64,000 nt of DNA from NCBI GenBank assembly GCA_000091205.1, contig AP006496.2; one strand, written 5' to 3'. Origin of the DNA: Cyanidioschyzon merolae (taxonomy: Eukaryota). The notes below the pieces were generated by a model, which worked only from the letters and a program-made list of their open reading frames with translations, was not told the origin of the DNA and did no database searches. The position numbers were made by a program, and so were the translations under genes. Shown here one piece after another: positions 5,883-55,460 of the stretch. Each line of letters starts with the position of its first letter. The first letter of the stretch is position 1.

Positions 5883-6529
5883 TGTAAGATAATTCGGAGC
5901 AGGCGTGAAGTGGCCCTGGTCGAGCCTGATACTCCTTCAGGTGCGTGCCTCGAAGAACGGAGTTTATATTAGAACTTGCGGATCGGTGCGAAGAGTCGGT
6001 TGCAAGAGCGTACACGACTCGAGCGCCACAAACGAGCGCGGCGCACCCGAGTGCCTGCACCTGCACTACCGCGACCCGCGCCAGCGAAGTTTTTATGCTG
6101 TAGAATTATTGAGGAGAATCGTAGAAGTAAGCGTGCCTGCACCCGTGATGTTTTTGATGCGATAGGCTCGTTGAAGAGAGTCTGAGGCGTGCAGCTGCCC
6201 TCCGCTCACAAGAATCGAGCGGTATTCCACGAGCGCCTCTGTCGATGGCGCGCGATGTTGCCGCCCATGCGGGCACATCAACGACCTCAGGCTCGATTTG
6301 GCGTGCGCGCGCGCTCGTAGCGCCAGCGGGGCGTCTATGCGCAATGCTATCGACTGAAGGAACACTTTGATGGTCTACCACTTGTACTGGAATACTTCTC
6401 CGACTCTATCTATAGATATATGCGGTGCTTGATGTTCTATGGAGTGTTGAGGGCACCATGAACGTGCCTGGATCCGGACGGAATACTATGCAATGCATAT
6501 TGGGCACTGATTTTTCCAACGAGAGTTTG

Positions 6530-8268
6530 GAGCGTTGCAGCGCAGCGTCTGCATCAGTAAGAGTCGCTTCCCTGGCAAGCTCGCTCGACGTAAAGCCGGT
6601 GGACGATCTGGAAGCACGAGATATTGCCTGAGGTTGATCGAGGGGTTCAAGTCTCGATGCAGTATGGACGGGTATGTGTGTGTACTTGCTGCTGGCGTCA
6701 CGACGCAGCGAGCCTCACGCCTTTGATTGCCGCTGCATCTCATGGTCGAGCGGCTTACCGTACGCCATCTCGTGCGTCTGTCTCTGTTTCGCTCTCTGAT
6801 TCTCTACCGGATTCGGCACGCGCCCGTGCTCATGACACGTGTATGCCGTCCTGAACACATCGGCGGGCATCGTGCAGCGCGCATTTCTGTATTTACTTCT
6901 GTATTTCGGCATGCTCATTGCATGAGCAGGCGTCCAGCATTTCTGCGTTATAGCGCGCCCTGCTCCATGGGTTACCTATCAAAGAAAACTGAGCAGCTTC
7001 ATCTGCTTCGCACTGAGGCCTTCGGCTCCGTCCCCGCGCTCTAGACGCACAGCGAAGGCCATGGCGCTATCTGACCTGGGAATCACGCGCACAGCGAAGC
7101 CTTTCCCCGCATCTAGCTTGAACAGTTGGAAATGCGTCGCGCTGCCCGAAAGGATACTTTTCGGCACCTGCGCTGTCGAGGTCCCGTTCAAGGACGTGGT
7201 GCGTCGACCTTTCAAGGTATTCTGCGGGCTGTAGGTGCGAGTCTCTGACCCGACGCTCAGGCCGTGTTGCGGGTTTTGTTCCGGGCTTCATTCACGCTGT
7301 CCCTCGGGGAGGGTTCAGCCATAAAAAGCGCAGAGCAATGTGGACAGCTGGCAGCCCTGCGCCCGCAACACGTACGCATTGTTGGTGAACGAGCTGCGTC
7401 ACAGCGCGCGAAACTGAGAGAGTCCTCATCGAGTGCGAAGCAACGCGACGCCATTTGGCGACCTGTATCTCGCTTTACTGAATATTCTCCCTGCTAATGT
7501 GTCTTTGCAGGGAGGCGTCGAGAGTGGTTCCGGCGTCATGCGCCCGATCCGTGAGCTTTTCCTTCCTGTCCCTGCACATCCTCTTCGTCTGAGGGATCCT
7601 CCTGCTCGTGGCGGAGCGGCCTCTTCGCCTTTGCGTCCGCTCGGCTGCGCGCGCCTTGAGCGCTTTCGAGTAAGGGGGCGCATCGTACCCAACGATCAAC
7701 CCAGAAGAATGCGTGATAGAGACGCAACGGAGCGCTTCGACGGAGTATGAGGTGCTGAACGAAGCCGTCTGCTTGGCGATCACTAGGTGGCTCGGCAATG
7801 AAGTCGCCTCTGGGCCTGATGGTGTCGGAATGCTCGCTTATTTGTGCTTTGGGATCCGTCGTTCGCGCCTCGTTGGGTACCCTTGTGCGGGTCCACCATC
7901 GCTCCCGAACAAGTCCCTTTGCGGCGTTATACGGAAATCGAGCACCTCATGTGAGAATCATTGGCGCCGCAGTGCGAAATCGATAAATTGTGTCGTTCAG
8001 CACGAAACAGTCTCCCATACAAGTGCATTCCCTTCTGTATCCGTCTGTGTCTCTTCGGAGCAGCTCGTACCGACGGTACGGCATCATCACAGTCGATGAC
8101 TGCTTCCGTGGAATTCCGTATCGAAGAAATGGAGTGGCATAAATTGACGAGGAGACACACTGATCAACACAGGGTTTGGTACCGTCCGCATTGAGTGCGA
8201 ATCGTTCATCATGCAGAATACGAGTGGGTAGCTGCATCCAGCCGCTGACCCTGGACTGGCTGACTTGT
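6530..8268 (-). mobile_element. Copy 1 of a ~2-kb dispersed repeat family carrying a decayed TnpB/Fanzor-like ORF (sense on the minus strand), truncated at both ends relative to copies 2 and 3
   Basis: Near-identical DNA at 39945-41925 and 59294-61285. Minus-strand ORF pieces contain KLDAGKGFAVRVI (RuvC-I-like, compare [16 protein letters not shown]), AVRLERGDGAEGLSAKQMKLLSF (compare [25 protein letters not shown]), VFRTAYTCHEHG (compare B EFRTSYTNHELG) and ILHRDLNPSINLRQYLVL (compare B FVNHDLNAAINIKRCAVL). The reading frame is broken many times. Confidence 0.75.
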
Positions 8269-9718
8269 ACAAATCATGTCGCCTTTGGTACACCAGCACT
8301 GACACCATAGAAACTTTACGCCAACTCTCTCCAATCGATAGGCTCCATTCTCTTTGTCTTAGGCATGCGACAACCATGGATAAAGACGAAACCTGACCTG
8401 CTGGTACAGTTGGTACAAAATTCGCTGCTCGGATTATATCGATGATGCGCTGTGTGCCGAGGACAAGGTGCGCGGACATTACCGGCTGCCGCTGTGGTCA
8501 CTGCAAGCACCCGCTCATAGCTATGCACCCGCTCGAGTCAAGCATGTGTGGTTCACGCGTCATCGCTTAGGAACGAATATTTCATCGTCGCTGCATTATA
8601 TCGCAGGAGATCGATATCACGATGCAACTGACCGTATAGATCGTAGACGAATTGACTCCAGGATATATTCTTTACTGAATAGTTCAAGGAGGATTGCGTC
8701 CCTTTTTCAGATCAGTCATGCCATAGGACGCAGATGATTGAGGAACACTGTAAGGAACCAGTATATGCGATCTGCGTCAAAAACCGATATTTTTAAAGAC
8801 TGCTTGCCGTTTATGCTAGAAAACTTCCGATTGATCAAACTACGGAAAGCAAAACTGACGATCAGAGCCATCCCGGGCGTCACTGTTTCTCAACAGATCA
8901 ATTGTATGGTCCTGGAAACAGTAGGATAGTCTCAAGAGTCATAATTCACGCACGGCCATCTTCCATGGAGATCGCAATGTCGACGTTCCTCGAACGTCGC
9001 GATCTTCATCAAGCAGAGTGACGTCAGTCTGTTTTTCAGTTGATGCGACATCCTCCGGACGAAAAGGTTGGAGTATACATGAGTATTCGTGGAGCTGGGA
9101 ACCCGTTGTATGTACGATCGAACTCGAAGAGAACGAGGACGTCATCCATTCTTGCTGCAATCGATCCATTTGGCTGTCTCAGATTCGCTTGTGGAGAAGG
9201 CTGAAAGAAAAGCACCTGCTTCGTCTACTACTTGGAAACTTTTCTCCTGACATCTGGTGACGCCATCCTATTGGACAGTGTCGAATTTCGCCATCCGCTT
9301 TCCGTTCGAGCATTTGCCGATTCTATCGGGGAACGAGCTGTCTTTCATTCCTCAGTGTGCTGCGTGGTTCATCCCCATCAGAGGAATGTTTTTGATCATG
9401 AAACGCAGTGATCGCTCCACTGGGTGAATCGCTGAAGCGTTCAGCACACGCTGGCACAACGGAGCACATAAAATCTTCCTTCTGCATGTGCGTCTGTCTC
9501 TGGGAAGGTCAGCACCTAAGGGCATAAACAAGGGCGTTCGTTTGAATACATTAAAAAATCCAGGGAAAGTTATGGACTCGGAAGTCCGAGATGTTTGAGG
9601 CCCGGTGTTGCCAGCTGCCGGATAAAAAACGGAAAGAATCCTTTTCTCGACAAACATCAAGCGAACAAGAGTATGTGACGAAGAAGAAAAAGAAAAGAGG
9701 GGACACAGCACAGCAAAG

Positions 9719-10006
9719 ATGTTTGGCCGACGGGATAGTGACGATCCTGTTATGTCACAGAGGACACGAGTTCGAGGAATCCTTGCTTTGGTGAGTTCCA
9801 CCAGCGGCAATAAACGCATGAAGTTCGTGAACCGAGAATTCAACGTCACCATCAGGATCAGACGATCTGCGGTGCTAAACACGGGGACCGAGGACCCCGG
9901 GCGATTTAACTTCATGGGGCAGCCTCTCAGACTCGACTTGTACCCAGATAATTCGAAATCGATAGCAGACGGCCGGTCCAGGAAAAGCTGGGAGACGTCG
10001 GTGTAA
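9719..10006 (+). pseudogene. C-terminal fragment of a TnpB/Fanzor-like nuclease gene, divergent from copies A and B
   Basis: RTRVRGILALVSSTSGNKRMKFVNREFNVTIRIRRSAVL...FMGQPLRLDLY aligns with B RRAKVRGLLALMSTTNDSKKRMEFVNHDLNAAINIKRCAVL...FIGQPLKVKLY. The stop codon TAA sits inside a GTAAGT hexamer. There is no upstream N-terminal part. Confidence 0.6.
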
Positions 10007-10027
10007 GTTTCTCCTTGATTCATTGAG

Positions 10028-10650
10028 AGGAACAGAAACTAACCATTCACTATCAACTCGATAACAATTTCTTCCCTGCTCTACCGTACACGTTTACAAG
10101 GGGAAAAGATTTCCGTATTTTCGAAAGCTTTCCTTCTAAGCGGAAGGTCCCGCGAGCCGGACGAGTCTGATGGGCTCGTGCTCCGTGCACCTCTGAAGTG
10201 CCCGGTGCTATAGTGAGGCCTGAACAGCTCCTCCGCAACGCACTATATTCTGGGACCAGGAGCAGGTAGGATGCATCCAGGTGTCGCCATAATCACAGAG
10301 GTCTCCGGGAATATCGCTTCGCGCTGTCGCAGGAAGTAGGCCTGTCTGCGCAGTTTGCAGACCCCCAGAATGCTGACAAGTCTGAATTCCGTATCGGATG
10401 AACCAAGCATCAAACCGACGCCCTGAGTGGTATGGCAAAGCCGTTCTGTCTCCGTGCAGCATCTGCTTCAACGGCATACGCGCGATTGCGGATGCAGCAA
10501 GACAGGTACCCGGCGCACGATCGAGCGTACATAACGACCGGTACATCCGAGAGGAACTATGGATCAGGGAACTTGCAAGTAGGTTGCAGCATGAAGGATG
10601 CTTTCTCGGTAACCAATATCCATCCCACAATCTGCGATCCATGGTCCAAG
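10028..10650 (+). repeat. Conserved ~620-nt non-coding unit, copy 1 of 3. It corresponds to the left end and leader of Fanzor-like element B and is a candidate structured RNA or regulatory module.
   Basis: Collinear DNA similarity to 21828-22450 and 54858-55460 with indels. Shared blocks are gaacaga[ag]a[ct][ct]aac, aa[ag]gg[ag]aaa...tt[ct]ccg, cccgcgagcc[ag]gacgagt, gcagttaa[ag]ctgc[ag]tctgggcgtcg, ggctcccagaatg and tgcatc[cg]gcatcagcgg. Reading frames are not conserved across copies (the 22-kb copy has stops), and a stem such as gcgagcc...ggctcgc is retained with changes. Confidence 0.6.
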
Positions 10651-16285: not shown

Positions 16286-16711
16286 CTAGAGTCGGAACGG
16301 CGCCATCGCGAGACCCTTTCCGCGCAACGCCTGTCGATAGACGACTTCGAAGAGGTCCACCAGCTGCTGCACGCTCGGCACCGGACGGGTCAGACGCGCC
16401 GTGTCTCCAGTACCACAGTCCACCTTGATGAGGCGCTTTCGATAATAGAACTGGAGCGACAGGGGTCGCCACGCCTCAACGCCGAAGCGCCGCGCAGCCT
16501 GCGGAACCTGCCGCAAGTCCACACCGTACACCACTGCGAACCTCCGCACGCGCGCTGCTGATCTTGCGAGGATTTCGTCCATGAAGACACAATCTACAGC
16601 TGCTGGATCGCTACTAAAGCGCAGGGCAACCAGACGCTCGGTTTCCTCAGCCAGTGCTTGTTGAATCGCCGCCATGGAGCCCAGTACCGGCACCAACGGT
16701 GCACTGTCCAT
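16286..16711 (-). CDS. DIM1: DIM1 / thioredoxin-like protein 4 (U5 snRNP 15-kDa, TXNL4 family)
   Basis: MDSAPLVPVLGSMAAIQQALAEETERLVALRFSSDPAAVDCVFMDEILARSAARVRRFAVVYGVDLRQVP...YYRKRLIKVDCGTGD...LFEVVYRQALRGKGLAMAP matches TXNL4A MSYMLPHLHNGWQVDQAILSEEDRVVVIRFGHDWDPTCMKMDEVLYSIAEKVKNFAVIYLVDITEVPDF...GTGNNNK...ETVYRGARKGRGLVVSP. Confidence 0.75.
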   Translation of the reverse strand: MDSAPLVPVLGSMAAIQQALAEETERLVALRFSSDPAAVDCVFMDEILARSAARVRRFAVVYGVDLRQVPQAARRFGVEAWRPLSLQFYYRKRLIKVDCGTGDTARLTRPVPSVQQLVDLFEVVYRQALRGKGLAMAPFRL

Positions 16712-17039
16712 ACCATCGGAGGTGTATGCAACCCCAACAAACAGCTATCGTTCACTGCAAGTCCATCGGCTGACGTTTGGCGTCACACGAGCGCTCGAGT
16801 CTGACGCTCGTGATACCACACGCGCATACGCAAGTCCGCACGCCCAGCCTTTCCTCTTCAATGGACAGCGTCCGCACAGGCGCACGTTTTCTGCCGCCTG
16901 CGCTGGCGCAGTTGCGCGCACGCAATCTGAAACGGTATGCACCTCTCCATTTACGCACCATCATGAATCTATAGTACTATGAATATACATAAATATATCA
17001 TTAGGTATCTATATGCCACCACAGCAGCACGTTCGGATT

Positions 17040-17230
17040 TTTTCGCTGACAAAACGTTTACTTCGGCCAGCGTTCTCCGATTAAGCGCATTTGTTTCTTA
17101 CTTTTTTTGTGGTTTTTTTCAGTGGGCGGTAAGGTGTCCATCAAACCCCCGACCTCCAAGTTACATTGCCGATACCTCTTCTCGGATATTCCGGTCGTTT
17201 CATACGTCCCATCGGGTGTGCCTAGTGCCT
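17040..17230 (+). repeat. ~150-190-nt conserved non-coding motif, copy 1 of 2 (second copy 28440-28620), containing a polypyrimidine tract followed by CAG, 6 nt, then GGTAAG
   Basis: ggccagcgttctccgattaagcgc...tttttttcagtgggcggtaaggtgtccatcaaacccccgacctccaag here, versus ggccagcgtcctccgattgtgcgc...ttttttttcagcgcgcggttaagcatccatcaaaccccctacttccaaa at 28.5 kb. Confidence 0.5.
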
Positions 17231-17905: not shown

Positions 17906-18541
17906 ATGCTGGTATCACTTGCTTCTAGTCCTTCTTTGGGTCTGAATTATTTGCGTTACCCAGCCAAAGCAGTGCGGGTAACGCGCTGTGAACGGCTTCG
18001 CCTCGCAAACGCGCGCCGGGGTGCAGGTCCCGCCAAGCTTGACGCGTGTGCACCTCGACCGGCCGGGGGCGACACGCTTCGCTGGCGTGATACTGTTGCG
18101 CTTTATGCACAGCTTTCCGCTGAACAAACTGTGGAGCACTTGCTCGAAGGTCTCTCGCGTCGACAGGCACTCACCACCGCGCAGGAGTGTGATGAGGGTA
18201 TTGAAGCGTTGTATGCCTTTGCGAACTTTGACGTCTGGTCGATCAAGAATGAGTTCTTCGGAAAGCGAATTGATTTGGGTCAGTTTGAACGCTTTAAGCG
18301 CATCATGATGGCGAGGCCGTATTCCGCGCTGCTCCGTCACAAGTGTCGATGCGTGCTTAGCTCAATGCGAGTCACCCCATACCTCTACCACTGCCGTATC
18401 CAGGTTCTCTCGAGCGTGGACGACGTTGCCGTTTTCAGGTTTTGCCTCAGCCGCCGAGCGTTGCCAGGCGCTCCACGTGCACCACGCCGTCCGCGTTTGT
18501 ACTGGATGGTTGACCAAATTCTCCATGAGCAAGTTTCATGA
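17906..18541 (+). CDS. Hypothetical protein with a conserved-looking core (EALYAFANFDVWSIKNEFFGKRIDLGQFERFKRIMMARPYSALL); family not recognised
   Basis: 211-aa ORF with mixed, moderately GC-biased third codon positions. A competing antisense ORF lies at 17915-18340. Confidence 0.3.
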   Translation: MLVSLASSPSLGLNYLRYPAKAVRVTRCERLRLANARRGAGPAKLDACAPRPAGGDTLRWRDTVALYAQLSAEQTVEHLLEGLSRRQALTTAQECDEGIEALYAFANFDVWSIKNEFFGKRIDLGQFERFKRIMMARPYSALLRHKCRCVLSSMRVTPYLYHCRIQVLSSVDDVAVFRFCLSRRALPGAPRAPRRPRLYWMVDQILHEQVS

Positions 18542-19286
18542 TGTCACTTCTTTGCACAGTCACATAAAGGCCGCCAATGGTGCCCCTTCATGTTTATGAT
18601 GTAGAAGGCTTGCTGTGCGCCATGCAGCGCAGGAGGCTGCTTCGTTCCGCTGCGCACTCTGGTGCGTGCTCGCTACCGAACGCTTGCATGCATCTCCATA
18701 GCGGGGCGCAGTCGCACGTCTCCACAGAGCCATTCCGGACATGATCGTCTTGAATGGTTTGTGTGTTGGAATACAACCCGTGGTGAAGCGTGATGCCGGC
18801 GAGGGTGACGCTTACCACGAAAACACCTCCTGCGACCAGTCGTCTTGCGGGCAGCTCCAGCCAGCGCTTTCCTGACAGTAACTGTCTTCCGAGCAAACTC
18901 GCGTACGTCATATAATTCTGCAGACACGTCCCCGTTTCACGGAAGGGAAAATCTCGAGGAGCAAAGCGGAGCCGCCCGCACGCCCACACACACACATCTA
19001 TGATAGGGACGAGAACGGATCACCCAGCACTTGTGTGACGAACAGTGCTCCGTGTCGCGTTCTGTTTCCGTGCACGAAAGGCTTGCTTTCAGCGCTACTT
19101 GTCGTAATTAAGGACCGGCCAGACCGTTGGAGCAGTGTCCGGTGCAGTAGACCGCGTACCTGAAAGCCACAAAAGGCGCACAGGGCAGAGCGCCGTACTG
19201 CGTCCAGCTCGCGAAACCGGTCGCTTCTTTCGGGCGATGGGCGCGGTCGCCTGCTGCTGGTCCGTGGTATCGCCGACACAAGGAGC

Positions 19287-21815
19287 GCCTTAAAAGTCGA
19301 ACGTCGCCGGCGGCCGTGTACAGTAGTGGCGAGAAACCCGCCCTAGATAAAACGTCTTCAGCTGACGTGCAGACGCCTCCCAGCTTTTTTGGACAGGCTA
19401 CCTACTACTGCCTCCAACTTTTTCTCATACAGCTCCACTTTGAATGATTGCGCAACAAAGTTCTCTCGTGTCAACTCTGGAGGTCTTCTTTCCACCACGG
19501 CACATCTCCTTATATTGATAGCGGCGTTAAAGTCACGATTCACAAACTCCATACGTTTCTTGCCATCTTTGTTTGTACACAGTAATGCGAGTAGTCCACG
19601 AGCTTTCGCCCTGCTTTCCATTTGCTCCTCCGTCAACGCTCCGTACTTTTTTACATCCTCAGGGCTTCACTGGTACTTTTCCATCTCCACTCTCTGAAGC
19701 GTACAACCCACTTCATGGTGTGTATACGACGTCCGGAACTCATCTACAGGTATCGTAACGAGATGCCTTTCACACACCTTGTGCGTTCTTGTAGCTGGAG
19801 CTAGCCTAGTCCCTTTTTCCCACGCCTACCGCCCTGCCCAATACGCTTCTACTAGCCTCTGACTGTCGCTCTCCTTCAAGGCGCTCAACTCATTGAAAAA
19901 ACTCGTGAACGCACGCTGCCTCCCACCGTGTAGATTCATACACAACCGAGCCCACCGGGGCTTTGTATACTCCTCCTACAGCGCCTCGCAATGAGCAACA
20001 CGAACTTCCATAAACTCCCGGAAAGCGTGAAAGTCCGCTCCCCGGCCCGTCACCTGGCTGATCGCTTCCAGGTGCTCTTTCAATCCTGCGTTCCACGCCC
20101 CACTTTTCTTCCTTTATTCATTACACTGAATTCTCGGTAATATCTCGTTCTTGAAAGCTTTAAAACACGCATGTGTTTTTGACGTAGGTTGCCGTCGATG
20201 CCATCATCCCCGCAATTGCGTGTTGTGATGGTCATGATATTCGTGTTCCCAGGGCCCGCGCCAACGACAAAGTGGTTCTCATGCACCTCCTGCTTCGTGG
20301 GGCTAGCCTCTTTGTTTTCTTCACGCTTTGCCAGCGACGGCAACGAAGACAGAACTGGACGATCCGCCTTCAAGCGCCGATAATGTACACGCATGGCTAT
20401 CGCATCACTTTCGATCATCCCAGTAAAGTCCTTTTTCTTGCTCGTTCTGAGACGTTTGGAATCGAAGATATTCTTCTTCCAGTACGTCTCCTGGTTTTCA
20501 CCGGTGAACTCCTTGTTGCTTACATCGAACACTGGACAGATCTCCGTAATGATGCCGTAAGGGATTTCGGAGTCGATACTCACAAAATGTGACTTGATGT
20601 TGCACAACGGAACGACGTTGAAGCGCTTCTCCAGAAGCGCAGCTTTCCGTTTCTCCGTCACTGCATTTGCTTCAACACCCTGCTCCATATCGGTCTTGCA
20701 TTTCAGTTGTCGGTTCAGGAATATGGTATAGCGCAAGATGAGGCGATCGTATCTTTCCGAATCTTTTTTCAACTCTGATATCTTTTCTGCTGGACTCGCC
20801 AGCCCCAAGACCACACGATGCTCTTTAATAGCTGCACGGATTACAGAATCCTCATTTGCTCTCCTGCGTGATGTCTTCTCGTGAACAAATTCGATCTACT
20901 GTTCATTCTTACTATCGTTTGTGATGCCATCGATGATGGTCCATATCCCTTTGCGAGAGGGGCCCGGGTAGCGCGTACAGACGGCGCGTATCATGAAACG
21001 TTCCAGGTTCATGGTCAAATAGTTCTTCAGGTTCGTGAGGTGCTTCATAACCCCGACGGTGTAAATACGCGAGTCACCCCTGTCTCGAGTACCGTTGAAG
21101 CGGAATTCGGCGTAATTTTCGTGGAGGGCATGCACCCGCTCATTTCTCCTCGACGTTTCCCCTGTACCAAGCATCAGGTGACGAATAAAGGTTTTGCCGA
21201 AAAATTCTTCCAGAACCTCGACTGTTTTGATGCCCGTTGCGTCGTCGCGCATCTCCTTCACCAAATGCATTATACCTGCAGAAGCCATCATAACACTCAT
21301 GGAGTCTGACTCGATACGGTTTCTGATGGCCTCTCGCAGCTTTCGCCGGGACGGATCCTTGATATGTGCGAGAAGACAGGTTTTCACCACCATCTGGTCG
21401 TACTGTCGTGTTTCGTTCAGCTTCTGACCTCGGGCCTCCCTCTTTTGCTCCATCGTCTTCTCATGTTCCTTTTAGCTCCGCCATGTTTTTCCTTAGTCTC
21501 CGGCAGTCGACGACACCAGATGTCCAGGATCCTCCAGTTTCTTTTCCACAACTTTTTCATTATTTTTGAAGAAGAAGAAGGCTCTTTCAACGCTTCTGAT
21601 ATGAATCGCTAAAATTGATTTGAATACACTAACTTGAGGTTTGAAACACAATTGCATTAAACAACTTTAATTTGTTACGACTTTAACGCAAATACAACTT
21701 GTACGGTAGAACAATAAGAAAACGGATTTTCACAATTTCGCGTTTCCTTTCAACGGCGACACGTGCGTCTTGTCTCGTACGACCTGATCTCCCCGGCGCG
21801 CTAACCGACCGCAGC
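19287..21815 (-). mobile_element. TnpB/Fanzor-like element copy A (pseudogene). Its 5' leader is truncated where element B begins, and it has an in-frame TAG, an internal deletion and frameshifts.
   Basis: ORF pieces 20896-21453, 20080-20814 and 19358-19636 on the minus strand are collinear with copy B at about 55-65% amino-acid identity ([17 protein letters not shown]; KRMEFVNRDFNAAINIRRCAVVERRPP...KVELYEKKLEAVVGS). The manual translation around 19985 reads VRVAHCEAL*EEYTKPR where B has VRVAHWDSLWEEYTKPR. The 3' tail after the stop codon matches B's tail (tcgccactactgtac...cttttaagg). Confidence 0.75.
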
Positions 21816-21827
21816 ATACAGAGCAAA

Positions 21828-22450
21828 GAACAGAGACTAACCATTAACTAGCAACGATATACCAATTTATCTTCCCTGCACGATAAACGATAAAAAGGAA
21901 ACACGATTCCCGTTTTGTCGAAAGTTGAATTTCTCGACGGAAAAACCCGCGAGCCAGACGAGTACCCCAGGCACGTGCTTCGTGCTCGCCTCCCAGTGGC
22001 GGGTGCTGCACTGAAATCTGAGCAATTCGTCTGCAGCACTGTTTATTCTGGTACTAGCGGCAGTTAAACTGCATCTGGGCGTCGATCCGGTCGCGGTGGA
22101 GTCCTAGTATAGAGCTTCACGCTATCGCAGGCAGTGTGTCTGTCTGCGGAGCTTGCTGGCTCCCAGAATGATCCTATACTCCAACTCTGTGTCAGGTGGA
22201 GCATTCCTCGATCCGACGCCCTCAGTAGTACGGCAACGCTGCTCTGTATCTGTGATGCATCGGCATCAGCGGATTAGACGCTAAGGCGGGTGCATCAACG
22301 CATGCACCCGGCGAATGACAGGAAGCACGAGACGAGTAGTACATCTGAAAGGAAGTATACGTAATGGAATCTGGAGTTAGAATGCAGCATGATGGACGCT
22401 TTCGCTGAATCCGATACCCATTTATAGCACAATCTGGGATCCATTGTCAA
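21828..22450 (+). repeat. Conserved ~620-nt non-coding unit, copy 2 of 3; this copy is the left end of Fanzor-like element B
   Basis: See 10028-10650. Copy A (minus strand) is collinear with B only from about 22215 onward and lacks 22340-22450. Confidence 0.6.
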
Positions 22451-22802
22451 TATAAGTGTTTTTCCATCGGAAAAATGAAGCGTGTAGCTCTAACGTACAA
22501 ATTGTAACGATGTTCAAGTCGTAGAAAAATACATTGTTTGTCCTCAATCGTGTTTCAACCTTCACTCTAGTGTATTCAAGTGCTTTTTCGTGCGTAATAG
22601 CTGTCCCATCCAAAGTGGTTTCGGTTTTTATATTGAAAAAGGAAAGTTACGGAAGTGGAAGTGTAGGATCCTGGGCGTCAATGTCGCCGGCAGCCCGAAA
22701 AAACGAAGAACAGTGCCAAGTGCAAAGGAACAGGATAAGAAGAAGAAGTAAAAGTGGAAGGCCCTACGTCAAAGGCTACACAAAAGACGACGGTACGACG
22801 AG

Positions 22803-24838
22803 ATGGCGGTGAAAGCCTGTCTTCTTCAACATACCAAGGATCCGTACAGGGAAAACGTTCGAGAGGCAATATGGAACCGTGTCGAGCCGAACTCCAGCGG
22901 TGTTCGTGATGCTTCTCAAGGAATGTTGCATTTCCTAAGAAAATGGTATCATGACGTTACGGACATCAAAACAGTCGATATTCTGGGTGAATTTTTCAAC
23001 AAAACCTTTATTCATCACTTTATGCTTGGCACCGGGGAAACGTCTAGGTGAAATGAGCGAGTTCATGCCCTCCACAAAATTTACGCCGAGTTCCGCTTCG
23101 ACGGTACTCGATACAGGGGGGATTGGGATATTTACATCTACGGGGCGATGAAGTACCTCACCAGTCTAAAGAACCATTTAACAATGAACCTCAAAAGCTT
23201 CATGATACGCTCCATCTTTGCACTCTACCCCGGTCTCACTCGTCAGGGGATATGGGCGATTGTCAATGGCAACACGAACGATCGCAAGCATGAAGATGAG
23301 ATTGAATTCATCGACGAGAAGAAATCACTCAGGAGCATGAATGAGGATTCCGTCATCCGAGCGGCTATACAAGAGCATCGTACGGTACTGGGGTTGGCGA
23401 ACCGAGCAGCAAAGATATCAGAGTTGAAAAAAGATAACGAAAGATACTATCGCCTCGTCCTGCGTTACTTTGTGTTTCTGGGCCGTGAGCTCGAACGCAA
23501 GGCAGAGATGAAGCTGAGTGAGGAAAAAATGAAGAGCGGGGGAAACGAAAGGCTGCGCTTCTGGGTAAGCGCTTCAACGTCGTTCCGTTGTCCAACATCA
23601 AGTCACGTTTTGTGACTATCGATTCCAGAATCCTTTACGGCATCATGAAAGACTTCAGCCCCGAGTTTAATGTCAGCAGGAAGGAGAGTACCGGTGAAAA
23701 CCGGGAGACGTACTGGAAGAATATGTTTGATTTCACACGTCTGAAAGTGGGCAAACAAAAGGTATTCACAGGGGTGATCGAAACCGATGGAGTAGCCATG
23801 TGTATTCACTATCGGCGCTTGAAGGCGGATCGTCCAGTTCCGTCTTCGATAGTGTCCGTGACGAAGCATGAAGATGAGAAGGAGGCGGATTGTGCCACAC
23901 AGAAAGTGCAGGATAACAACTTTGTCGTTGGCGCGGACCCTGGGATTACGAATATCGTAACCATCGCTGCTCCCAAGCGTGCGGAAGATGGTAACGACGG
24001 TAACACACGTCAGAAAGGCATGCGTCTGTTGAGGTTCTCGAGAGCGAGATACCACCGAGGATCCGGCGTAATGAATGCAAGGAAGAAAATCATTACATGG
24101 AATTCAGGAATGAAAGAGCACCTGGAAGCTTTGAGCGAGGTGACGAGCCGAGGAGCGGACTTTAACGCTTTTCGGGAGATTATGGAAGTTCGCGTTGCTC
24201 ATTGGGATTCGCTGTGGGAGGAGTATACAAAGCCTCGACGGGCTCGTCTGCTTATGAACCTGTATTGTGGGAAGCGGCTTGCATTCGCCAACTTTTTCAG
24301 TCAGTTGAGCGCCTTGAAGGAGGATGAAAGTCAGAGGCTCGTAGTAGCATACCGAGCAGGGCGCTGGGCGTCGAAAAAAGGAACTACGCCAACTCCAACG
24401 ACAAGAACGTACAAGGAGTGCGCACGGCGCTTCGCTACGATACCTGTAGATGAGTTCCGAACATCCTATACAAACCATGAACTGGGGTGCACGCCTCAGA
24501 CGGTCGAGATGGAGAAGTGTCAGCGAAGCCCTGAGGATATACAAAAGTACGGACCGCTGACGGAAGAGCATATGGGAAGGAGGGCGAAAGTTCGAGGGCT
24601 ACTTGCACTAATGAGTACAACCAATGATAGTAAGAAACGTATGGAGTTTGTGAATCATGACTTAAATGCCGCGATCAATATCAAGAGATGTGCGGTGCTG
24701 GAGAAGAGACCTCCAAACTGGACAAGAATGAACTTTATTGGACAACCTCTCAAAGTCAAACTATATGAGAAGAAGTTGGAAGCAGTAGTAGGCGGCCGGT
24801 CCAAGAAAACTGCGAGGCGTCTGTACGTAAGTTGGTGA
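22803..24838 (+). pseudogene. TnpB/Fanzor-like RuvC nuclease ORF of element B. It is nearly intact, with one in-frame TGA (23049-23051) and one 14-nt tandem duplication (23562-23575) that shifts the frame.
   Basis: N-terminus MAVKACLLQHTKDPYRENVREAIWNRVEP..., RuvC-I-like [31 protein letters not shown], and RuvC-III-like KRMEFVNHDLNAAINIKRCAVLEKRPP. Where A has TSRRNERVH, B has TSR*NERVH. Deleting tgggtaagcgcttc restores the frame (ERLRF|NVVPL, matching A EKRFNVVPL). Confidence 0.75.
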
Positions 24839-24905
24839 TGTCTAGTCTGGGGCGCGGCGATCGCCACTACTGTACCACTGGCGACAGCGTTTTTCTTTTG
24901 AAAGG
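24839..24905 (+). other. Right-end tail of element B: conserved hairpin-like segment followed by a T-run. It is a candidate terminal omega-RNA scaffold and/or terminator.
   Basis: gtaagttggtgatgtctagtctggggcgcggcgatcgccactactgtaccactggcgacagcgtttttcttttgaaagg. The matching tail of copy A runs from tctagggcgggtttctcgccactactgtacacggccgccggcgacg to ttcgacttttaagg. The two sequences diverge immediately after this point. Confidence 0.45.
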
Positions 24906-24944
24906 CGTTGGTTTCCAGGGGCGCGCGCTACAGCAACGCCTCTG

Positions 24945-25517
24945 GTGCGCCTGCTGGGTATGACGGCAGACGCAGCTTGGCCAGCGCTCGTGGTTAGCTT
25001 TCTCCTGGGGCTTTTCGCAGGGCGCCGCAGCAAGCACCAACGAACTGGTGCCAGCGGGCTGGACACGAGTGCATCGGGCGCGCCTGCTGGGTCAGTGATC
25101 GACAGCACGCCCGCTGATGCACCGTTCGCCTCGCTGGTGCCGCTCGCGTCGGCGCCGTCAGGGACCACCGCTGACGTTAAACTGATGCTCATCGTACGTC
25201 GTGACCTGAAGATGAGCCCTGGCAAAATTGCCGCTCAATGCGGGCATGCCTCTGTCGGTGCTTTTAGAGGGTGTACGGATCGCGCGCTGCTGGCTGCTTG
25301 GGATCGAAACGGCCAGCCGAAAATTGCGCTGCGCTGCAGCTCACTGAAAGAGCTGTTGGCGATCGAACGGGCGGCCCGGCAGCTTCGTATACCGACTTTT
25401 GCCGTACGCGACGCGGGGAGAACGCAGGTCGTGGCGGGCACGATTACGGTGCTGGCTGTTGGGCCTGCCGAGAGTGCCAAACTCCAGAGAATCACCGGCC
25501 ATTTGAAGCTACTTTAA
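24945..25517 (+). CDS. PTH2: Peptidyl-tRNA hydrolase 2 (PTH2/PTRH2 family) with an N-terminal membrane anchor
   Basis: KLMLIVRRDLKMSPGKIAAQCGHASVGAF...GQPKIALRCSS...RDAGRTQVVAGTITVLAVGP...ITGHLKLL matches PTH2 [22 protein letters not shown]...KIVLK...DAGRTQIAPGSxTVLAIGP...VTGHLKLL. Confidence 0.8.
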   Translation: MRLLGMTADAAWPALVVSFLLGLFAGRRSKHQRTGASGLDTSASGAPAGSVIDSTPADAPFASLVPLASAPSGTTADVKLMLIVRRDLKMSPGKIAAQCGHASVGAFRGCTDRALLAAWDRNGQPKIALRCSSLKELLAIERAARQLRIPTFAVRDAGRTQVVAGTITVLAVGPAESAKLQRITGHLKLL

Positions 25518-28403: not shown

Positions 28404-28439
28404 GTTTCACCAAGACGCGCAACGAAAGATGCTGCAAAT

Positions 28440-28620
28440 TTTTTCCCATTGCCAAGACGCGTACCAAGGCCAGCGTCCTCCGATTGTGCGCTTTTGCTTT
28501 TTTCTTTTTCTTTTCATTTTTTTTCAGCGCGCGGTTAAGCATCCATCAAACCCCCTACTTCCAAACTCCGTAACCCATACTACTCCTCGGATACACTGAT
28601 CGCTTCATAGGCTGTATCGT
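28440..28620 (+). repeat. Copy 2 of the ~150-190-nt conserved motif (see 17040-17230). It lies 40-200 nt upstream of the SppA start codon on the opposite strand.
   Basis: Direct similarity to 17040-17230. Confidence 0.5.
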
Positions 28621-29089
28621 TCGCTGAGCGCATGCCGCAAGCGTCCCTTGTGGAGCTTGTACCGTTGGCACGAATGCATCTCAATGACAGAACGGCTTTG
28701 CCGTACTAATGAGGACGCCGCCTCGGTGCTTGGTTTATCCAACATGGAATCGGGATTCACTATCATTACGAGAGCCTGCAAGCTGCGCAGACAGACCTAC
28801 TGCCTGCAACAGCGCGAAGAGATTTACCAGGATAATCCTGCGAACACGGGCGACTCCTAGACGCAGCGCACCAGCTCCTAGTCCCGAACTGAACTGCGTT
28901 GCGGGCGAGCTGCTCAAGTCTCGCCATTGCACCCACCACTTGGTGGAGCATGAAGTTTCAGCGCGGCGGAGTCGTCTGGCTCGCGGGACGCCCCGACTAA
29001 AAGGTGAACTTTCGACCATGCGAAACAATTTTGCCAGCTTCAACACGTACCGTCGAGGCAAATATTCGTATATCGTTGCTAGGTAGCGT

Positions 29090-30040
29090 TCGTTTCCGTG
29101 ATTATTTTCTACAGCGCAGTCGATACGCACACCATCATATTTGGGAGATGACATTGACGGCAGCCTGCGCCACAATGAGATGCGTCTTTTGAAGTTCTCG
29201 AGAGCTGCATATTGCCGACAGTCGGAGATAATGAAGCCCAAGAAATACTGCACCCTGCAACGCTGAACAGAAGGAGTACCTGGACGCGATGAGCAAAGTC
29301 GCGTCGCGCGGAGCGGACTTTCGAGCTTTTCTCGAATTCACGGAAACTCAAGCTGCTCATGCCGAGGAGCTGTGGAAAGAGAGTATCCAAAGCCCCGGTG
29401 GGCTCGTCAGCGCATGAACCTTCGCAGAGGGAAGAAGCGGGTACGCGGCATGTTCATGAATCAGTTGAGCGCCCTCAAGCAGGACAAGAGTCAAAGGCTC
29501 GTAATTGGATACGCAGCAGGGCGCCGGGTGTCCAAAAAGCTAGCGTACCAGCTCCATCGACAAGAGCGCGCAAGGAGTGCACACACCGTTTCATCGCAAT
29601 ACCGACAGATGAGTTCTGAACGTCCTACGTGCACCAGGGGCTGTGGTATACGCTTCTGGAGGTCGAGATGGAAAAGTGCCAGCGGAGGGCTGAGCATATA
29701 CAAAAGTGCGGAGACCTGACGGTGCAGGAAATGGCACGAAGGGCGCGAGTTCGAGTACTCCTCGCTCTAGTGGGTTCAAGCAGCGGCAACAAACACATGC
29801 AGATCGTGAATCGAGACTTTAACGCCGCTTTCAATATCAGGTGATGTGCGGTACTGGAGAAGAGATTCGAGGGGTTGACACGATCCAATTTTGTGCCACA
29901 AACTCTCCGAGTCCAACTGTAAAACGAGAACTTGAAACCAATAACAGGCGGCCGGTCGATAGAGACGGAGCGGCGTCAGCACGTCGGTACATAGGTACCC
30001 GCGCGATCATCGTACCGTATTCAAACGCGATCCCCAGAAG
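29090..30040 (+). pseudogene. 3' fragment of a TnpB/Fanzor-like element of the A/B subfamily, with multiple frameshifts and stops
   Basis: MRCVF*SSRE aligns with [63 protein letters not shown] and KHMQIVNRDFNAAFNIR align with B ALSEVTSRGADFNAFREI, SQLSALKEDESQRLVVAYRAGR, RFATIPVDEF and KRMEFVNHDLNAAINIK. The tail ggcggccggtc...cgcgcgatcatcgtaccg is similar to B's right end. Confidence 0.6.
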
Positions 30041-30346
30041 CAGCGCGCAATCGCAACCGCAGCTGTGCACTGCATCGGTGCGCGCGGAGGCGGCGGCGCG
30101 ATGCGTGAATCTGCTGCGGGCGTACGCTCGTCTGCCGGAGGCATCCAGCGCCTCCAGGTGACACTTCAGGGCTGGTAACGTCTTCGAAAAGCCAGAGCAA
30201 GGGATAGCTGTGTGTACCGAAGCACCGCCATAGATTGCTAAAGTCTTTTGCGGTACTTGTTTTTAGCACCTGGCTCGAGTCCCGGGCGCTCGTCGGGGCC
30301 ACTGTAGTTCGTGCGCGCGCGCGTTTCCGGAGTAACCAGTACTGCG

Positions 30347-37975: not shown

Positions 37976-38527
37976 GTGCAGCGGCCGAAGCCGACTGCTC
38001 GCCTCGCAACCATAAACGCTTCCTACGAAATGCAGGCGAGTGCGCTGTGCGACGCGATCGCGATCGGGAGCAGCAGGTGCGAAACAAAATGGATTATATC
38101 AGACATAATAGACATCAGTGGGATACACGCGTTCCTGAGAGGGAACGCGCCTGTGCAGTGCGGCGCGGGCATGCAATGCATCCGCGAGCCGCGCGATCTG
38201 CGCACCCCGCTGCTGGACGACGGGCACCAGCGTGTCGAACGCAGAAGCAGGTGTACGGACGAGACGATTTTTCGGCCGTACGCTATGGAGGAGCGACTTA
38301 GCGATGAACTGATAGGCAGGGCGGCGATACAGCGGATAAAGCGCGATGGAGCACGATCAATTCGGCTCTATGAACGAGAGCAGGAAATAAAAAAGTTGCA
38401 AGATGAACTGCGCGAGTGTTCACGGCGAGCTGGACTCGAGCGTTTCTCCGAGTGCCGGAGCCTCGTACAAGAGCTGATCAAGATTTTTGAGGAGCCTTGG
38501 TACGGTGCGTTCTCGAAAAACGACTGA
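37976..38527 (+). CDS. Hypothetical small protein. The real start is probably internal (e.g. MEERLSDE... near 38280), because the annotated ATG is only 19 bp from the divergent PEX14 ATG.
   Basis: ORF only; coiled-coil-like tail IRLYEREQEIKKLQDELRE...LVQELIKIFEEPWYG. Confidence 0.25.
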   Translation: MQRPKPTARLATINASYEMQASALCDAIAIGSSRCETKWIISDIIDISGIHAFLRGNAPVQCGAGMQCIREPRDLRTPLLDDGHQRVERRSRCTDETIFRPYAMEERLSDELIGRAAIQRIKRDGARSIRLYEREQEIKKLQDELRECSRRAGLERFSECRSLVQELIKIFEEPWYGAFSKND

Positions 38528-39944: not shown

Positions 39945-41925
39945 TGTGGCGTTCCAGCCTCGCTCGACAGCTGACCAGTACCATACCAGTGTCTTGGCGC
40001 AGGCGAGGATCCGAATCTTCCCCCTGTTTCCTAACGTCTTTATTGCATCCGAACTCCACAGCGTTGCAGCGCAGCGTCTGCATCAGTAAGAGTCGATTCC
40101 CTGGCAAGCTCGCTCGACGTAAAGCCGGTGGACGATCTGGAAGCACGAGATATTGCCTGAGGTTGATCGAGGGGTTCAAGTCTCGATGCAGTATGGACGG
40201 GTATGTGTGTGTACTTGCTGCTGGCGTCACGACGCAGCGAGCCTCACGCCTTTGATTGCCGCTGCATCTCATGGTCGAGCGGCTTACCGTACGCCATCTC
40301 GTGCGTCTGTCTCTGTTTCGCTCTCTGATTCTCTACCGGATTCGACACGCGCCCGTGCTCATGACACGTGTATGTCGTCCTGAACACATCGGCGGGCATC
40401 GTGCAGCGCGCATTTCTGTATTTACTTCTGTATTTCGGCATGCTCATTGCATGAGCAGGCGTCCAGCATTTCTGCGTTATAGCGCGCCCTGCTCCATGGG
40501 TTACCTATCAAAGAAAACTGAGCAGCTTCATCTGCTTCGCATTGAGGCCTTCGGCTCCGTCCCCGCGCTCTAGACGCACAGCGAAGGCCATGGCGCTATC
40601 TGACCTGGGAATCACGCGCACAGCGAAGCCTTTCCCCGCATCTAGCTTGAACAGTTGGAAATGCGTCGCGCTGCCCGAAAGGATACTTTTCGGCACCTGC
40701 GCTGTCGAGGTCCCGATCAAGGACGTGGTGCGTCGACCTTTCAAGGTATTCTGCGGACTGTGGGTGCGAGTCTCTGACCCGAAGATCAGGCCGTGTTGCG
40801 GGTTTTGTACCGGGCTTCATTCACGCTGTCCCTCGGGGCGGGTTCAGCCGTAAAAAGCGCAGAGCAATGTGGACAGCTGGCAGCCCTGCGCCCGCAACAC
40901 GTACGCATTGTTGGTGAACGAGCTGCGTCACAGCGCGCGAAACTGAGAGAGTCCTCATCGAGTGCGAAGCAACGCGACGCCAATTGGCGACCTGTATCTC
41001 GCTTTACTGAATATTCTCCCTGCTGACGTGTCTTAGCAGGGAGGCGTCGAGAGTGGTTCCGGCGTCATGCGCCCGATCCGTGAGCTTTTCCTTCCTGTCC
41101 CTGTACATCCTCTTCGTCTGAGGGATCCTCCTGCTCGTGGCGGAGCGGCCTCTTCGCCTTTGCGTCCGCTCGGCTGCGCGCGCCTTGAGCGCTTTCGAGT
41201 AAGGGGGCGCATCGTACCCAACGATCAACCCAGAAGAATGCGTGATAGAGACGCAACGGAGCGCTTCGACGGAGTATGAGGTGCTGAACGAAGCCGTCTG
41301 CTGGGCGATCACTAGGTGGCTCTGCAATGAAGTTGCCTCTGGGCCTGATGGTGTCGGAATGCTCGCTTATCTGTGCTTTGGGATCCGTCGTTCGCGCCTC
41401 GTTGGGTACCCTTGTGCGGGTCCACCATCGCTCCCGAACAAGTCCCTTTGTGGCGTAATCCGGAAACCGAGCACCTCATGTGAGAATCATTGGCGCCGCA
41501 GTGCGAAATCGATAAATTGTGTCGTTCAGCACGAAACAGTCTCCCATACAAGTGCATTCCCTTCTGTATCCGTCTGTGTCTCTTTGGTGCCGCTCGTACC
41601 GACGGTACGGCATCATCACAGTCGATGACTGCTTCCGTGGAATTCCGTATCGAAGAAATGGAGTGGCGTAAATTGACGAGGAGACACACTGATCAACACA
41701 GGGTTTGGTACCGTCCGCATTGAGTGCGAATCGTTCATCATGCAGAATACGAGTGGGTAGCTTCATCCAGCCGCTGACCCTGGACTGACTGACTTGTCCA
41801 AGTAAGGCTGTTTTCTCGTGAACTACCGGTGACAACACCTTGTGTTTCCTGTTCCTGTCTCCATTCTGCAGGATACCCTCCGTTTTCTTGAATGCGTGTG
41901 AGAGATGTAGAGAAAAAGAACGTGC
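39945..41925 (-). mobile_element. Copy 2 of the ~2-kb Fanzor-relic repeat family (full-length relative to copy 1)
   Basis: The predicted ORF fragments are identical or near-identical to copy 3, and about 97% identical to copy 1. Confidence 0.8.
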
Positions 41926-42279
41926 TGATATAGCGACTGCATACGCGATCTGCGTAGGCAGCGATGCCCTGATGCCCCTGTCCGTAAAGATCCTAAATAT
42001 CGAAGATCTAAACACACCCCTGAGGCTCTGCAGCACAGGCCAGCGGGAGAACGTGTACTCCGGTGCGCGCGGAGACTGCCAGCCAGCTGGACGCAGCGTT
42101 GTTCGCGTCCCTTAGCTGAGCACGACTAGCGGGGCTCAAAGGTCCCCTTTTCTGACGCAAGCGCTTGGGGTTGTTGCTCTGGCACCAGTGCGCATAAGGC
42201 CCTGTGCGAAGCAAGCAACACTGTTGAAGGGCGAGCAGCGAACGACGACGCATACGCGACGGTTTCGCTCAAGATACTC

Positions 42280-54857: not shown

Positions 54858-55460
54858 AGAACAGAGATCAACGAGTGATTAGCAACTCGAGAACAGCTTC
54901 TTCCCGGCTTCACGGTGAGCGTTGAAAGGGAAAAAAGTTTTCCGTAATTTCGAAAGTGTATCGTGTTGGTGGAATTTGGCGCGAACCGGATGAGTCCGTC
55001 AGGCCAGAGCTCGCTGTGCCTCTAAGGTGCCGGGCCAGTAGCGAGTTCTGAGCAGCTCGTCCGCAACGCAGTTTATTCTGCGACTAGGGGCAGTTAAGCT
55101 GCGTCTGGGCGTCGCCCATGTTGCAATTATCTCCTAGCATATCGCTTCGCTCTGTCGCAGGCGGCAGGTCTGCTTACCCATTTTTCAGGCTCCCAGAATG
55201 CTTACATAATCCGATTCCGTACCTGGTGAAGCGGCCCGCAATCCGATGCCCTCAGCAGTATGGCAAAGCGTTCTTGTCCCCGTGCTGCATCCGCATCAGC
55301 GGTTTAGGCGCAATCGCGGATGCAGCAAGACAGGCACTCGCAACACAATGGAACATTCAAAACGGCAAGTGCATCCAGGCAGAGGCAAGGGCCATGGAAC
55401 TTGGACGTAGAGTGCATCATGGTGGACGCTTTCCCGAATACCAGTTTCCAATCCGCAGGC
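54858..55460 (+). repeat. Conserved ~600-nt non-coding unit, copy 3 of 3 (solo; no adjacent nuclease ORF)
   Basis: See 10028-10650. It ends about 250 nt upstream of the eIF4E ATG on the same strand. Confidence 0.6.

Follow-up and report, generated by a model that had tools for sequence, protein, structure and literature searches.

Known systems and the Cyanidioschyzon locus

In elements of the TnpB and Fanzor type, the guide RNA (omega RNA) is produced by transcription that runs out across the right end (see Saito et al. 2023 for such systems). Promoters are targeted by a different set of mobile elements, such as Tf1 of S. pombe, the Ty elements, P elements, Mutator and miniature inverted-repeat transposable elements (MITEs), which are retrotransposons or DDE transposons with known integrases. 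Here we examined a Fanzor-bearing family, CMe-1A with its 5′ part TE-N2_CMe (TE-N2), in a window of 64,000 nt from the 852,727-bp chromosome 14 of Cyanidioschyzon merolae 10D (CMN locus tags); all positions refer to this window. The region of interest, 24839–24950, is the hairpin-rich 3′ tail of a 5′-truncated CMe-1A copy, element B, followed by a spacer of ~37 bp before the ATG of PTH2, a peptidyl-tRNA hydrolase gene. Such a placement is a habit of the family. CMe-1A and TE-N2 copies reside in promoter-side, mostly divergent spacers, with the 3′ terminus typically 0–150 bp upstream of a co-oriented ATG, and with the 5′ (TE-N2) terminus a few hundred bp from a divergently transcribed gene.

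CMe-1A has been described as a Fanzor1 element of ~3 kb, present in ~150 copies that are ~80% identical to the consensus, with no terminal inverted repeats (TIRs) or target-site duplications (TSDs) reported, and TE-N2_CMe as its 5′ 635 bp, present in ~70 copies (Bao & Jurka 2013, PMC3627910). The main interspersed repeat of C. merolae, a ‘WSV486-like’ repeat with 253 copies that make up ~5% of the genome, was found to be transcribed, and its distribution was called random (Nozaki et al. 2007, PMC1955436). This repeat is evidently the same family as CMe-1A and TE-N2_CMe. The family includes elements A and B of the window as well as the units at 10, 28.7 and 55 kb. They share with the published elements the organism, the length of ~3.2 kb, a 5′ part of ~600–650 bp that also occurs solo, old copies of ~80% identity, an apparent lack of TIRs and the motif order D...E...[TS][TS]...Zn...RD. 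The elements themselves are no different from those described; what is new is their placement. Elements of this kind, promoter-side targeting and transposon-derived promoters are all known already, and a search of the literature found no report on the placement of the CMe-1A family, especially of its 3′ terminus right before housekeeping starts, and no description linking TnpB- or Fanzor-type elements to host start codons.

Comparison with these systems showed likenesses on several sides. Like Tf1, Ty, P, Mutator and the MITEs, the family occupies a compact genome and is enriched where spacers contain promoters (divergent > tandem >> convergent). Unlike Tf1-type elements, which usually sit 100–400 bp upstream and leave the promoter usable, CMe-1A often places its 3′ terminus 0–50 bp from the ATG, and does so with one end only. 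As in IS200/IS605-type TnpB and Fanzor elements, no TIRs or TSDs are reported for it, and it carries a structured right end directly after the nuclease open reading frame (ORF); those systems by their nature transcribe outward into the flank. Unlike IS200/IS605-type TnpB, however, CMe-1A has no known TnpA partner and no target-adjacent motif by its left end, and its guide RNA is putative. A hairpin was present at the 3′ end, but none was clear at the 5′ end, nor was a conserved motif seen outside the 5′ terminus, and no transposase was detected in or near the elements. This weakens the view that CMe-1A is an IS200/IS605 element, not the view that it works like one. As with promoters and leaders derived from transposable elements (TEs), such as exapted long terminal repeats and MITEs, a host gene would here rely on the element for transcription initiation. 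Those cases are usually sporadic, whereas here the dependence would extend to a large fraction of one family, and to housekeeping genes.

Element ends lie at gene starts

The first-pass annotation of the window had counted seven element ends, each pointing into the start of a host gene on the same strand. Its distances were accurate, and four of the cases are clean, with a 3′ end ahead of a same-strand start: element B before PTH2, the fragment at 29 kb before GCP, and copies 1 and 3 of a second repeat family (fam2) before DCC1 and PTPS. Two others proved to be 5′ termini facing divergent genes, and the last has no gene in front of it. Two further cases had gone uncounted; copy 2 of fam2 is contrary or ambiguous, while a TE-N2 part at 28674–29016, which faces the start of SppA, fits the pattern. 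Because seven cases in one window cannot show an association beyond chance, a wider sample of 80 loci was analysed.

These loci, each with a near full-length copy, came from hot-spring metagenome contigs of C. merolae-like strains and not from the 10D assembly, and taking the best 80 favours long copies. Elements were masked, and redundant loci were removed by clustering on the downstream flanks. Genes were called with a codon-score caller made here, which recovered 16 of 16 official genes in the window and added only decayed Fanzor ORFs and ORF 38030–38527. Seventeen genes were checked against Pfam, and start codons were verified only where Pfam domains or orthologues anchor them.

A downstream host gene lay on the same strand as the element for 52 of 65 unique 3′ ends, and 2 of the 13 exceptions were host ORFs opening inside the tail. 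When true 3′ termini were defined by the consensus, 30 of 34 faced a same-strand start and 4 a stop (p = 6 × 10−6). The 5′ termini of TE-N2 faced a divergent start in 20 of 22 cases and a stop in 2. The two ends differed in their distance from the ATG, with medians of 61–86 bp for the 3′ terminus and ~320–360 bp for the 5′ terminus (Mann-Whitney p = 1.7 × 10−4). Since the 5′ distances are slight underestimates, the outer terminus of TE-N2 having been placed ~50 bp too far for two query units, this asymmetry is only strengthened. At less than 150 bp from a gene boundary there were 20 pairings of a 3′ terminus with a start, 2 of a 5′ terminus with a start and 0 of a 3′ terminus with a stop. Under random placement and orientation, by a hand estimate, ~6% of 3′ ends would be expected within 150 bp of a same-strand start, against 20 of 34 observed. 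In about half of the cases a 3′ terminus is separated from a genuine start codon by ≤50 bp. Two facts are robust: the elements reside on the promoter side of genes, and it is the 3′ terminus in particular that lies close to the ATG. No general rule of orientation emerges.

That element ends go with start codons, as first claimed for the window, is a real and general pattern across the 80 further loci. Chance, or a peculiarity of the window joined to selective counting, might have been suspected from the window itself, where only 4 of the 7 listed cases are clean, two involve 5′ ends, one lacks a gene and one contrary case had been left out. The wider sample of independent loci gave p values of 1 × 10−4 to 1 × 10−13. 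These statistics refute this explanation, to which we attach next to no weight.

Occupied spacers were 26 divergent, 16 tandem (15 without one duplicate) and 2 convergent, whereas ~7, 26 and 11, respectively, were expected from the lengths of TE-free spacers (chi-square p ~1 × 10−13). This excess in promoter-containing spacers, with its deficit in convergent ones, is a feature of the promoter-targeting class. To account for the pattern, we give an even chance to a combined explanation, in which integration would be biased to promoter DNA and outward transcription from the 3′ end would serve as promoter or leader for the host gene. Both parts, the preference for promoter regions and the donation of a promoter or leader, are probably needed. 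They were among the mechanisms proposed in the first-pass annotation, and both fit the data.

Survivorship could produce a similar distribution if copies inserted at random and those in coding DNA and 3′ spacers were purged by purifying selection and by deletion bias in a streamlined genome. In its favour, C. merolae has a very compact genome, and the copies are old, with pairwise identities of 70–80% and decayed ORFs. Tails are truncated in several of the very close copies, as would follow from later deletions between tail and ATG. However, spacers without TEs are no shorter when convergent than when divergent (median 710 bp against 481 bp), yet the occupied ones number 2 against 26. Promoter insertions are, moreover, normally the more harmful kind in compact genomes, and a test of the deletion model found no correlation between copy age and spacer length (Spearman rho = −0.08). 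As convergent spacers are long yet near-empty and promoter insertions are normally harmful, integration bias is the likelier cause; survivorship by itself seems quite unlikely.

The 3′ tail of element B and the PTH2 junction

Element B ends in a non-coding tail (24839–24922, plus strand) with two short conserved hairpins, of the AGAC-N5-GTCT type and GGCG-N5-7-CGCC, and a terminal hairpin. In B the terminal hairpin is ~60 nt long and reads ...CCACTGGCGACAGCGTTTTTC-TTTT-GAAAGGCGTTGGTTTCCAGGGG. Its arms differ by subfamily yet are complementary (CGTTCGA-CTT-TCGAACG as against AACGTTTTTC-TTTT-GAAAGACGTT), and in the outer arms CACCGTTG pairs with TGATGGTG, or GTACC with GGTAC. In single-sequence folds the tail of B reached −37.9 kcal/mol (z = −2.0) and that of another subfamily z = −4.2. 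RNAalifold gave no consensus structure on the raw tail alignment, in which the subfamily hairpins are out of register.

Alignment of 48–50 independent copies showed that the 3′ consensus ends ...GAA(A/C)GGCGTT, plus a subfamily-specific extension of ~13 nt. In B this consensus reaches ~24909–24922, which leaves a gap of ~37–50 bp to the PTH2 ATG at 24960. As read from the sequence, the last ~37 bp (24923–24959, plus strand) are a unique spacer, in which no homology to the PTH2 upstream sequence of relatives could be detected. PTH2 itself (BAM81176, 24960–25517, plus strand) was identified by Pfam PF01981 and an exact GenBank match. Its N-terminus is conserved in three relatives, and its ATG is orthologous to theirs. 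Because only ~37 bp separate B from this conserved ATG, it is a sound proposal that B must either provide the core promoter of PTH2 or lie inside it.

The hairpins, found directly after the stop codon and with complementary subfamily-specific arms, are predicted folds of a kind that fits a guide-RNA scaffold. This bears on guide-RNA-directed homing, the remaining mechanism proposed in the first-pass annotation, by which a Fanzor ribonucleoprotein would send copies to sites by a conserved motif near gene starts. By analogy with TnpB and Fanzor, the position and hairpins of the 3′ tail may be those expected of a scaffold ending at the element boundary. A motif search at both termini, however, revealed no conserved sequence beyond the 3′ terminus or ahead of the 5′ terminus in 29–50 independent junctions. 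The 43 flanking genes are unrelated to each other, and most Fanzor ORFs are decayed. Homing to a flanking motif is the one of the three proposed mechanisms that found no support, and we consider it very improbable. Nor were tRNA genes or Rfam families found in the window that could be the true insertion target, although ARAGORN may miss the permuted tRNA genes of C. merolae.

Ancestral state in related algae

Cyanidiococcus yangmingshanensis and two other lineages share the gene order around the locus, the SppA proteins of the latter two being 63–77% identical to that of C. merolae. No Fanzor or TE-N2 sequence was found in 61 kb of the three relatives. There, DIM1 (16286–16711, minus strand, in the window) is the direct divergent neighbour of PTH2, and the spacer between the two is TE-free, divergent and 310–390 bp long. 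In C. merolae the same genes are 8.25 kb apart, and the interval holds a short repeat, the gene CMN035C, element A and element B. Other spacers follow suit: that between SppA and GCP measures 709 bp in L089 and 1229 bp in Cyanidiococcus vs 2.1 kb in C. merolae, and that between RUS and DCC1 1018 bp in Cyanidiococcus vs 4.6–5.2 kb. Since the spacers are short in the relatives and enlarged in C. merolae, the elements entered short bidirectional promoter spacers. Alignment of the DIM1/PTH2 flanks to the three relatives yielded no insertion point; the intergenic DNA is saturated, and scores were no better than those of shuffles. The argument from length is that the C. merolae flanks come to 325 + 37 bp, against 310–390 bp in the relatives.

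Downstream genes and the possible origin of their promoters

As to INDEPENDENCE and the reality of the downstream genes, the 43 downstream proteins were mutually without homology. The 17 closest genes are mostly conserved housekeeping genes, with Pfam domains starting at residues 1–27. Downstream products include KTI12, Tim17, a COPI-associated protein, a TPT transporter, zuotin, SUMO, eIF5B, glutaredoxin, an amine oxidase and a helicase. At one locus (L057) an intact element terminus, ...TGTTGTTGACGGTG, is followed by the KTI12 ATG after 0–1 nt; the N-terminus encoded there, MPVVVLCGLPRAGKS, we take to be the canonical KTI12 N-terminus. At another (L015) the ATG of Tim17 comes directly after a truncated tail. 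With these ATGs at the element end, the whole 5′ leader of such genes must be element sequence. More generally, where ≤50 bp precede the ATG, the gene would start transcription inside the element or use its tail as leader.

The combination of promoter-biased integration with promoter or leader donation would work in three steps. Integration would favour DNA in promoters or close to transcription start sites (TSSs). The outward transcription that makes the guide RNA would then provide the gene downstream with its promoter, or with no less than its entire 5′ leader, and a copy that came to lie between a gene and its own promoter would be tolerated only in the sense orientation. Antisense copies would persist only at greater distances upstream, which spare the native promoter, and this would give rise to the difference in distance between 3′ and 5′ termini.

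A rival explanation is integration preference alone, with the element donating nothing. If insertion were strand-specific and used the open or single-stranded DNA of active promoters or transcription bubbles, for instance by an IS200/IS605-like HUH mechanism acting on the non-template strand, the 3′ end would come to lie next to the TSS in sense while the host kept a minimal promoter. This would agree with the strong preference for divergent and avoidance of convergent spacers, with the 20 to 2 asymmetry in favour of 3′ termini less than 150 bp from a start codon, and with the intact tails found 0–3 nt from ATGs. The conserved terminal hairpin and the lack of reported TIRs or TSDs point the same way. 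However, a distance of 0–50 bp between terminus and ATG, as in about half of the cases, leaves no room for a native core promoter and leader. CMe-1A also has no known transposase partner, and no target motif was found at either junction. We regard integration preference without donation as unlikely.

Several observations weigh against promoter-biased integration coupled to donation. The locations, orientations and distances of the copies, their adjacency to bona fide starts and the TE-free ancestral spacer were observed directly, and the case for promoter or leader donation is a geometric one drawn from them. The claim that all ends share the same relative orientation did not hold, as 5′ termini face gene starts too, and in tandem spacers 11 co-oriented vs 6 anti-oriented copies were found, which is not a significant bias. 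Intact tails at exactly 0–3 nt from an ATG are poorly explained by tolerance alone and hint at a more specific integration rule. Orthologous pairs between strains (L017–L085) differed by 1.4–2.1% in the tail, 1.0–1.2% in the element interior and 0.25% in the adjacent coding sequence, so that no extra constraint on the tail was seen, the tail being no more conserved than the interior. The 1–2% divergence of the element vs 0.25% of the coding sequence reflects either neutral decay or gene conversion among copies. In addition, C. merolae repeats are reported to be weakly expressed, and about half of them to carry H3K27me3, on the basis of chromatin immunoprecipitation and RNA sequencing (PMC5405695). 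The literature search turned up no usable TSS data for C. merolae.

A more speculative extension, which taken as a whole we think improbable, is that reading out the Fanzor guide RNA also serves the host as a promoter. Both the guide RNA and the mRNA of the adjoining housekeeping gene would then be driven by the last few hundred bases of CMe-1A, and the element would home to essential genes. With its terminus right at the start codon, each copy would have as its guide the 5′ end of the essential gene itself, a target that cannot mutate away, and Fanzor could cut empty alleles, with homing during the sexual cycle. A sexual cycle of C. merolae has recently been described. As a fallback variant, strand-specific integration into the single-stranded DNA of the transcription bubble would take the place of homing.

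The C. merolae genome is among the simplest of any eukaryote, and the alga is used as a model. If the 3′ ends of CMe-1A do supply promoters or leaders, dozens to more than 100 housekeeping genes depend on a transposon, and promoter fragments used for transgene expression in C. merolae may be transposon tails. The placement would also give a handle on how a eukaryotic Fanzor guide RNA is transcribed, and on how sites are selected and retained by elements for which no transposase is known.

Anatomy of the copies in the window

Self-BLAST of the window found the inverted pair A (~19.3–21.7 kb) and B (22.5–24.9 kb), 77% identical, further Fanzor 3′ fragments at 9.7 and 29.1–30.0 kb, and ~600-bp units at 10.0, 21.8, 28.7 and 54.9 kb. 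It bore out the coordinates of all repeats listed in the first-pass annotation, and tblastn with metagenomic homologues did the same for their Fanzor-coding homology. The analysis did alter the anatomy of the A/B pair and the official start of RUS, two corrections of local importance. The unit to the left of B had been assigned to B, and such units had been taken as co-oriented with the Fanzor ORF. This was contradicted by four full-length copies (L022, L025, L040, L041), which are collinear with the reverse complement of 22476..19292. Because of this collinearity, the unit at 21825–22470 is the 5′ part of A, not of B, and TE-N2 units are consequently inverted relative to the Fanzor ORF.

Element A, as defined by this collinear alignment, is a full-length CMe-1A of ~3.2 kb (19270–22470, minus strand) that includes the TE-N2 part and a decayed Fanzor ORF. 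Its 3′ end faces the 3′ end of CMN035C, ~740 bp off, and A is an exception to the pattern because ORF 18594–18995 (minus strand), previously counted as its host gene, has no coding support. This ORF is absent from the official annotation, in which BAM81175 (17906–18541) is followed by BAM81176 (PTH2), and from the protein collection. It has no Pfam match, and its codon log-likelihood score is ~0 (−0.1 to −0.7). One of the seven host ‘genes’ is thus not supported as a gene.

Element B (22489–24922, plus strand; self-BLAST, tblastn and collinear alignment) lacks TE-N2 and the first ~780 bp. Its Fanzor ORF has at least 2 frameshifts and keeps D, E and D in the last 416 codons. The broken 5′ end lies ~18 bp from the 5′ terminus of A. 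A head-to-head pair of this kind, a full-length element with an inverted 5′-truncated copy from its 5′ terminus, was seen at two unrelated loci (19270–24922 in the window and L038:6117–11987), and for this arrangement both 3′ ends were recorded as pointing outward, towards genes 35–140 bp off.

The copy at 29 kb is an internally deleted CMe-1-type element (28674–30070, plus strand, 3′ boundary approximate), made up of a TE-N2 part (28674–29016), a Fanzor 3′ part (29120–29994) and a tail. It lies in the divergent SppA/GCP spacer, with its 5′ end ~390 bp from the SppA ATG (28286) and its 3′ end ~330–400 bp from the official GCP ATG (30401), in line with the distance first given. The same structure occurs in L001–L006. 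A short direct repeat, 73% identical, is found at 17037–17204 and 28438–28609, 150–490 bp upstream of the minus-strand genes DIM1 and SppA. At the SppA site it stands in place of the outer TE-N2 part retained in L001–L003 and L005.

Solo TE-N2 units were found at 10030–10627 and 54856–55456, both on the minus strand in the CMe-1A frame. The first has its outer (5′) terminus, ...GTCATCTGAAAAA-like, read towards RUS. The second occupies the spacer between the divergent genes for formin and eIF4E, and its outer terminus is 253 bp short of the eIF4E ATG (55709). The distances reported for these units stood (termini ~10627 and ~55456), but the ends that face RUS and eIF4E are 5′ termini of the CMe-1A frame. 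Abutting the inner end of the first unit is a short Fanzor 3′ fragment (9680–10029, plus strand; ~aa 508 to the end) of a separate 3′-tail subfamily. Short Fanzor 3′ fragments (~aa 476–534 to the end) with a different tail (GGTGGATATTCATTTAC...) were also seen elsewhere, at 29120–29994 in the window and in L013, L016, L028, L049, L054, L067 and L082. They look like a separate short non-autonomous subfamily, and most stand directly ahead of same-strand gene starts.

The fam2 repeats are three 2-kb copies, 95–99% identical, whose minus strand carries a distant Fanzor-like RuvC segment; their orientation had been read correctly. Copy 1 (6416–8420, minus strand) has its 3′ end 600–715 bp before the DCC1 ATG (5816, minus strand), and copy 3 (59294–61294, minus strand) 316 bp before the official PTPS ATG (58978, minus strand). 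Copy 2 (39945–41933, minus strand) lies 347 bp from the SAPLb ATG on its 5′ side. On its 3′ side it faces the 3′ end of ORF 38030–38527 or, if that is no gene, the start of PEX14 2 kb away, so its classification depends on whether this ORF is real. The ORF is unannotated, 165 aa long, with a borderline-positive coding score of 8.8, and is called as a gene in several metagenome assemblies. Of the four copies of fam2, the sole young family, three lay in promoter-containing spacers and the fourth in a convergent one.

The family and its protein

In the metagenome contigs 364 stretches matched the CMe-1A family. Pairwise identity was 67–80%, and the 3′ 700 bp were 83–94% identical to the consensus built here. 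The termini, 5′ TTTTTCAGATGACAAAACGTTTAC... and 3′ ...GAAAGGCGTT + ~13 nt, are not mutual inverted repeats. The published Fanzor1/TnpB motif, D-X(125-275)-[TS][TS]-X-X-zinc finger-X(5-50)-RD (Bao & Jurka 2013, PMC3627910), was present in the protein alignment with spacings of 176 and ~45 residues. Invariant residues were D318 (GADPG), E490, S494/T496, H497-H498...C502 and N557-x-D559 (NRDFNAAINI), and the zinc ligands resemble HH/CC rather than C4. A Pfam scan and a PDB profile search of the family protein for TnpB/Fanzor gave no match. The NCBIfam model guided_TnpB gave a faint match only (E = 0.11), covering the RuvC-I region, and the precomputed Pfam annotation of the protein collection names DUF8286. 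An AlphaFold model, built on a shallow alignment of 13 sequences, had a pLDDT of 33, too low to be of use.

Fanzor proteins of the family (P0002 and P0003) carry a variable number of ~25-aa tandem repeats (KHEEKKEASLETQKVQDNVLVVDAM) ahead of the RuvC-I motif. The orthologous copies L018 and L020 differ by ~300-bp indels in this repeat region, with a total alignment gap of 594 bp. An inverted repeat pair at 48396–48646 and 61877–62127, 68–73% identical, may be a third decayed element family. ORF 61655–62296 (minus strand) spans its second copy and has CxCxxC...CxCxxC after ‘EHLTT’, reminiscent of a TnpB-type zinc finger, with no Pfam match and a coding score of ~0.

Host genes and annotation

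The host gene names of the first-pass annotation were borne out by Pfam and GenBank proteins. Pfam matches were obtained for PTH2, RUS, eIF4E, GCP, DCC1 and PTPS, and exact GenBank matches (BAM81170–BAM81185) for eIF4E, PTH2, SAPLb, the esterase, DCC1, RUS, GCP, PTPS and CMN035C. In the official model, RUS (BAM81171, 827 aa) begins within the TE-N2 unit, at 10432. Coding scores over the first 196 codons are negative, and RUS of the relatives is 595–708 aa long. The true start is probably ~11020, which the coding score supports, or 10801, and the official model is probably over-extended into transposon sequence.

CMN035C (17906–18541), annotated with 211 aa, has a good coding score and no Pfam match. 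It lies inside the enlarged DIM1/PTH2 spacer, and the three related lineages lack it at that position. Either it is specific to its lineage or it was brought in along with the repeats. A perfect 45-bp tandem duplication was seen at 51700–51789 within the formin (FH2) gene, doubling 15 residues (MRAEDTLQLEIHERP twice). The esterase BAM81173 (14232–15401) has a paralogue, BAM82670, at least 90% identical, on the 1,282,939-bp chromosome, which points to a recent segmental or gene duplication.

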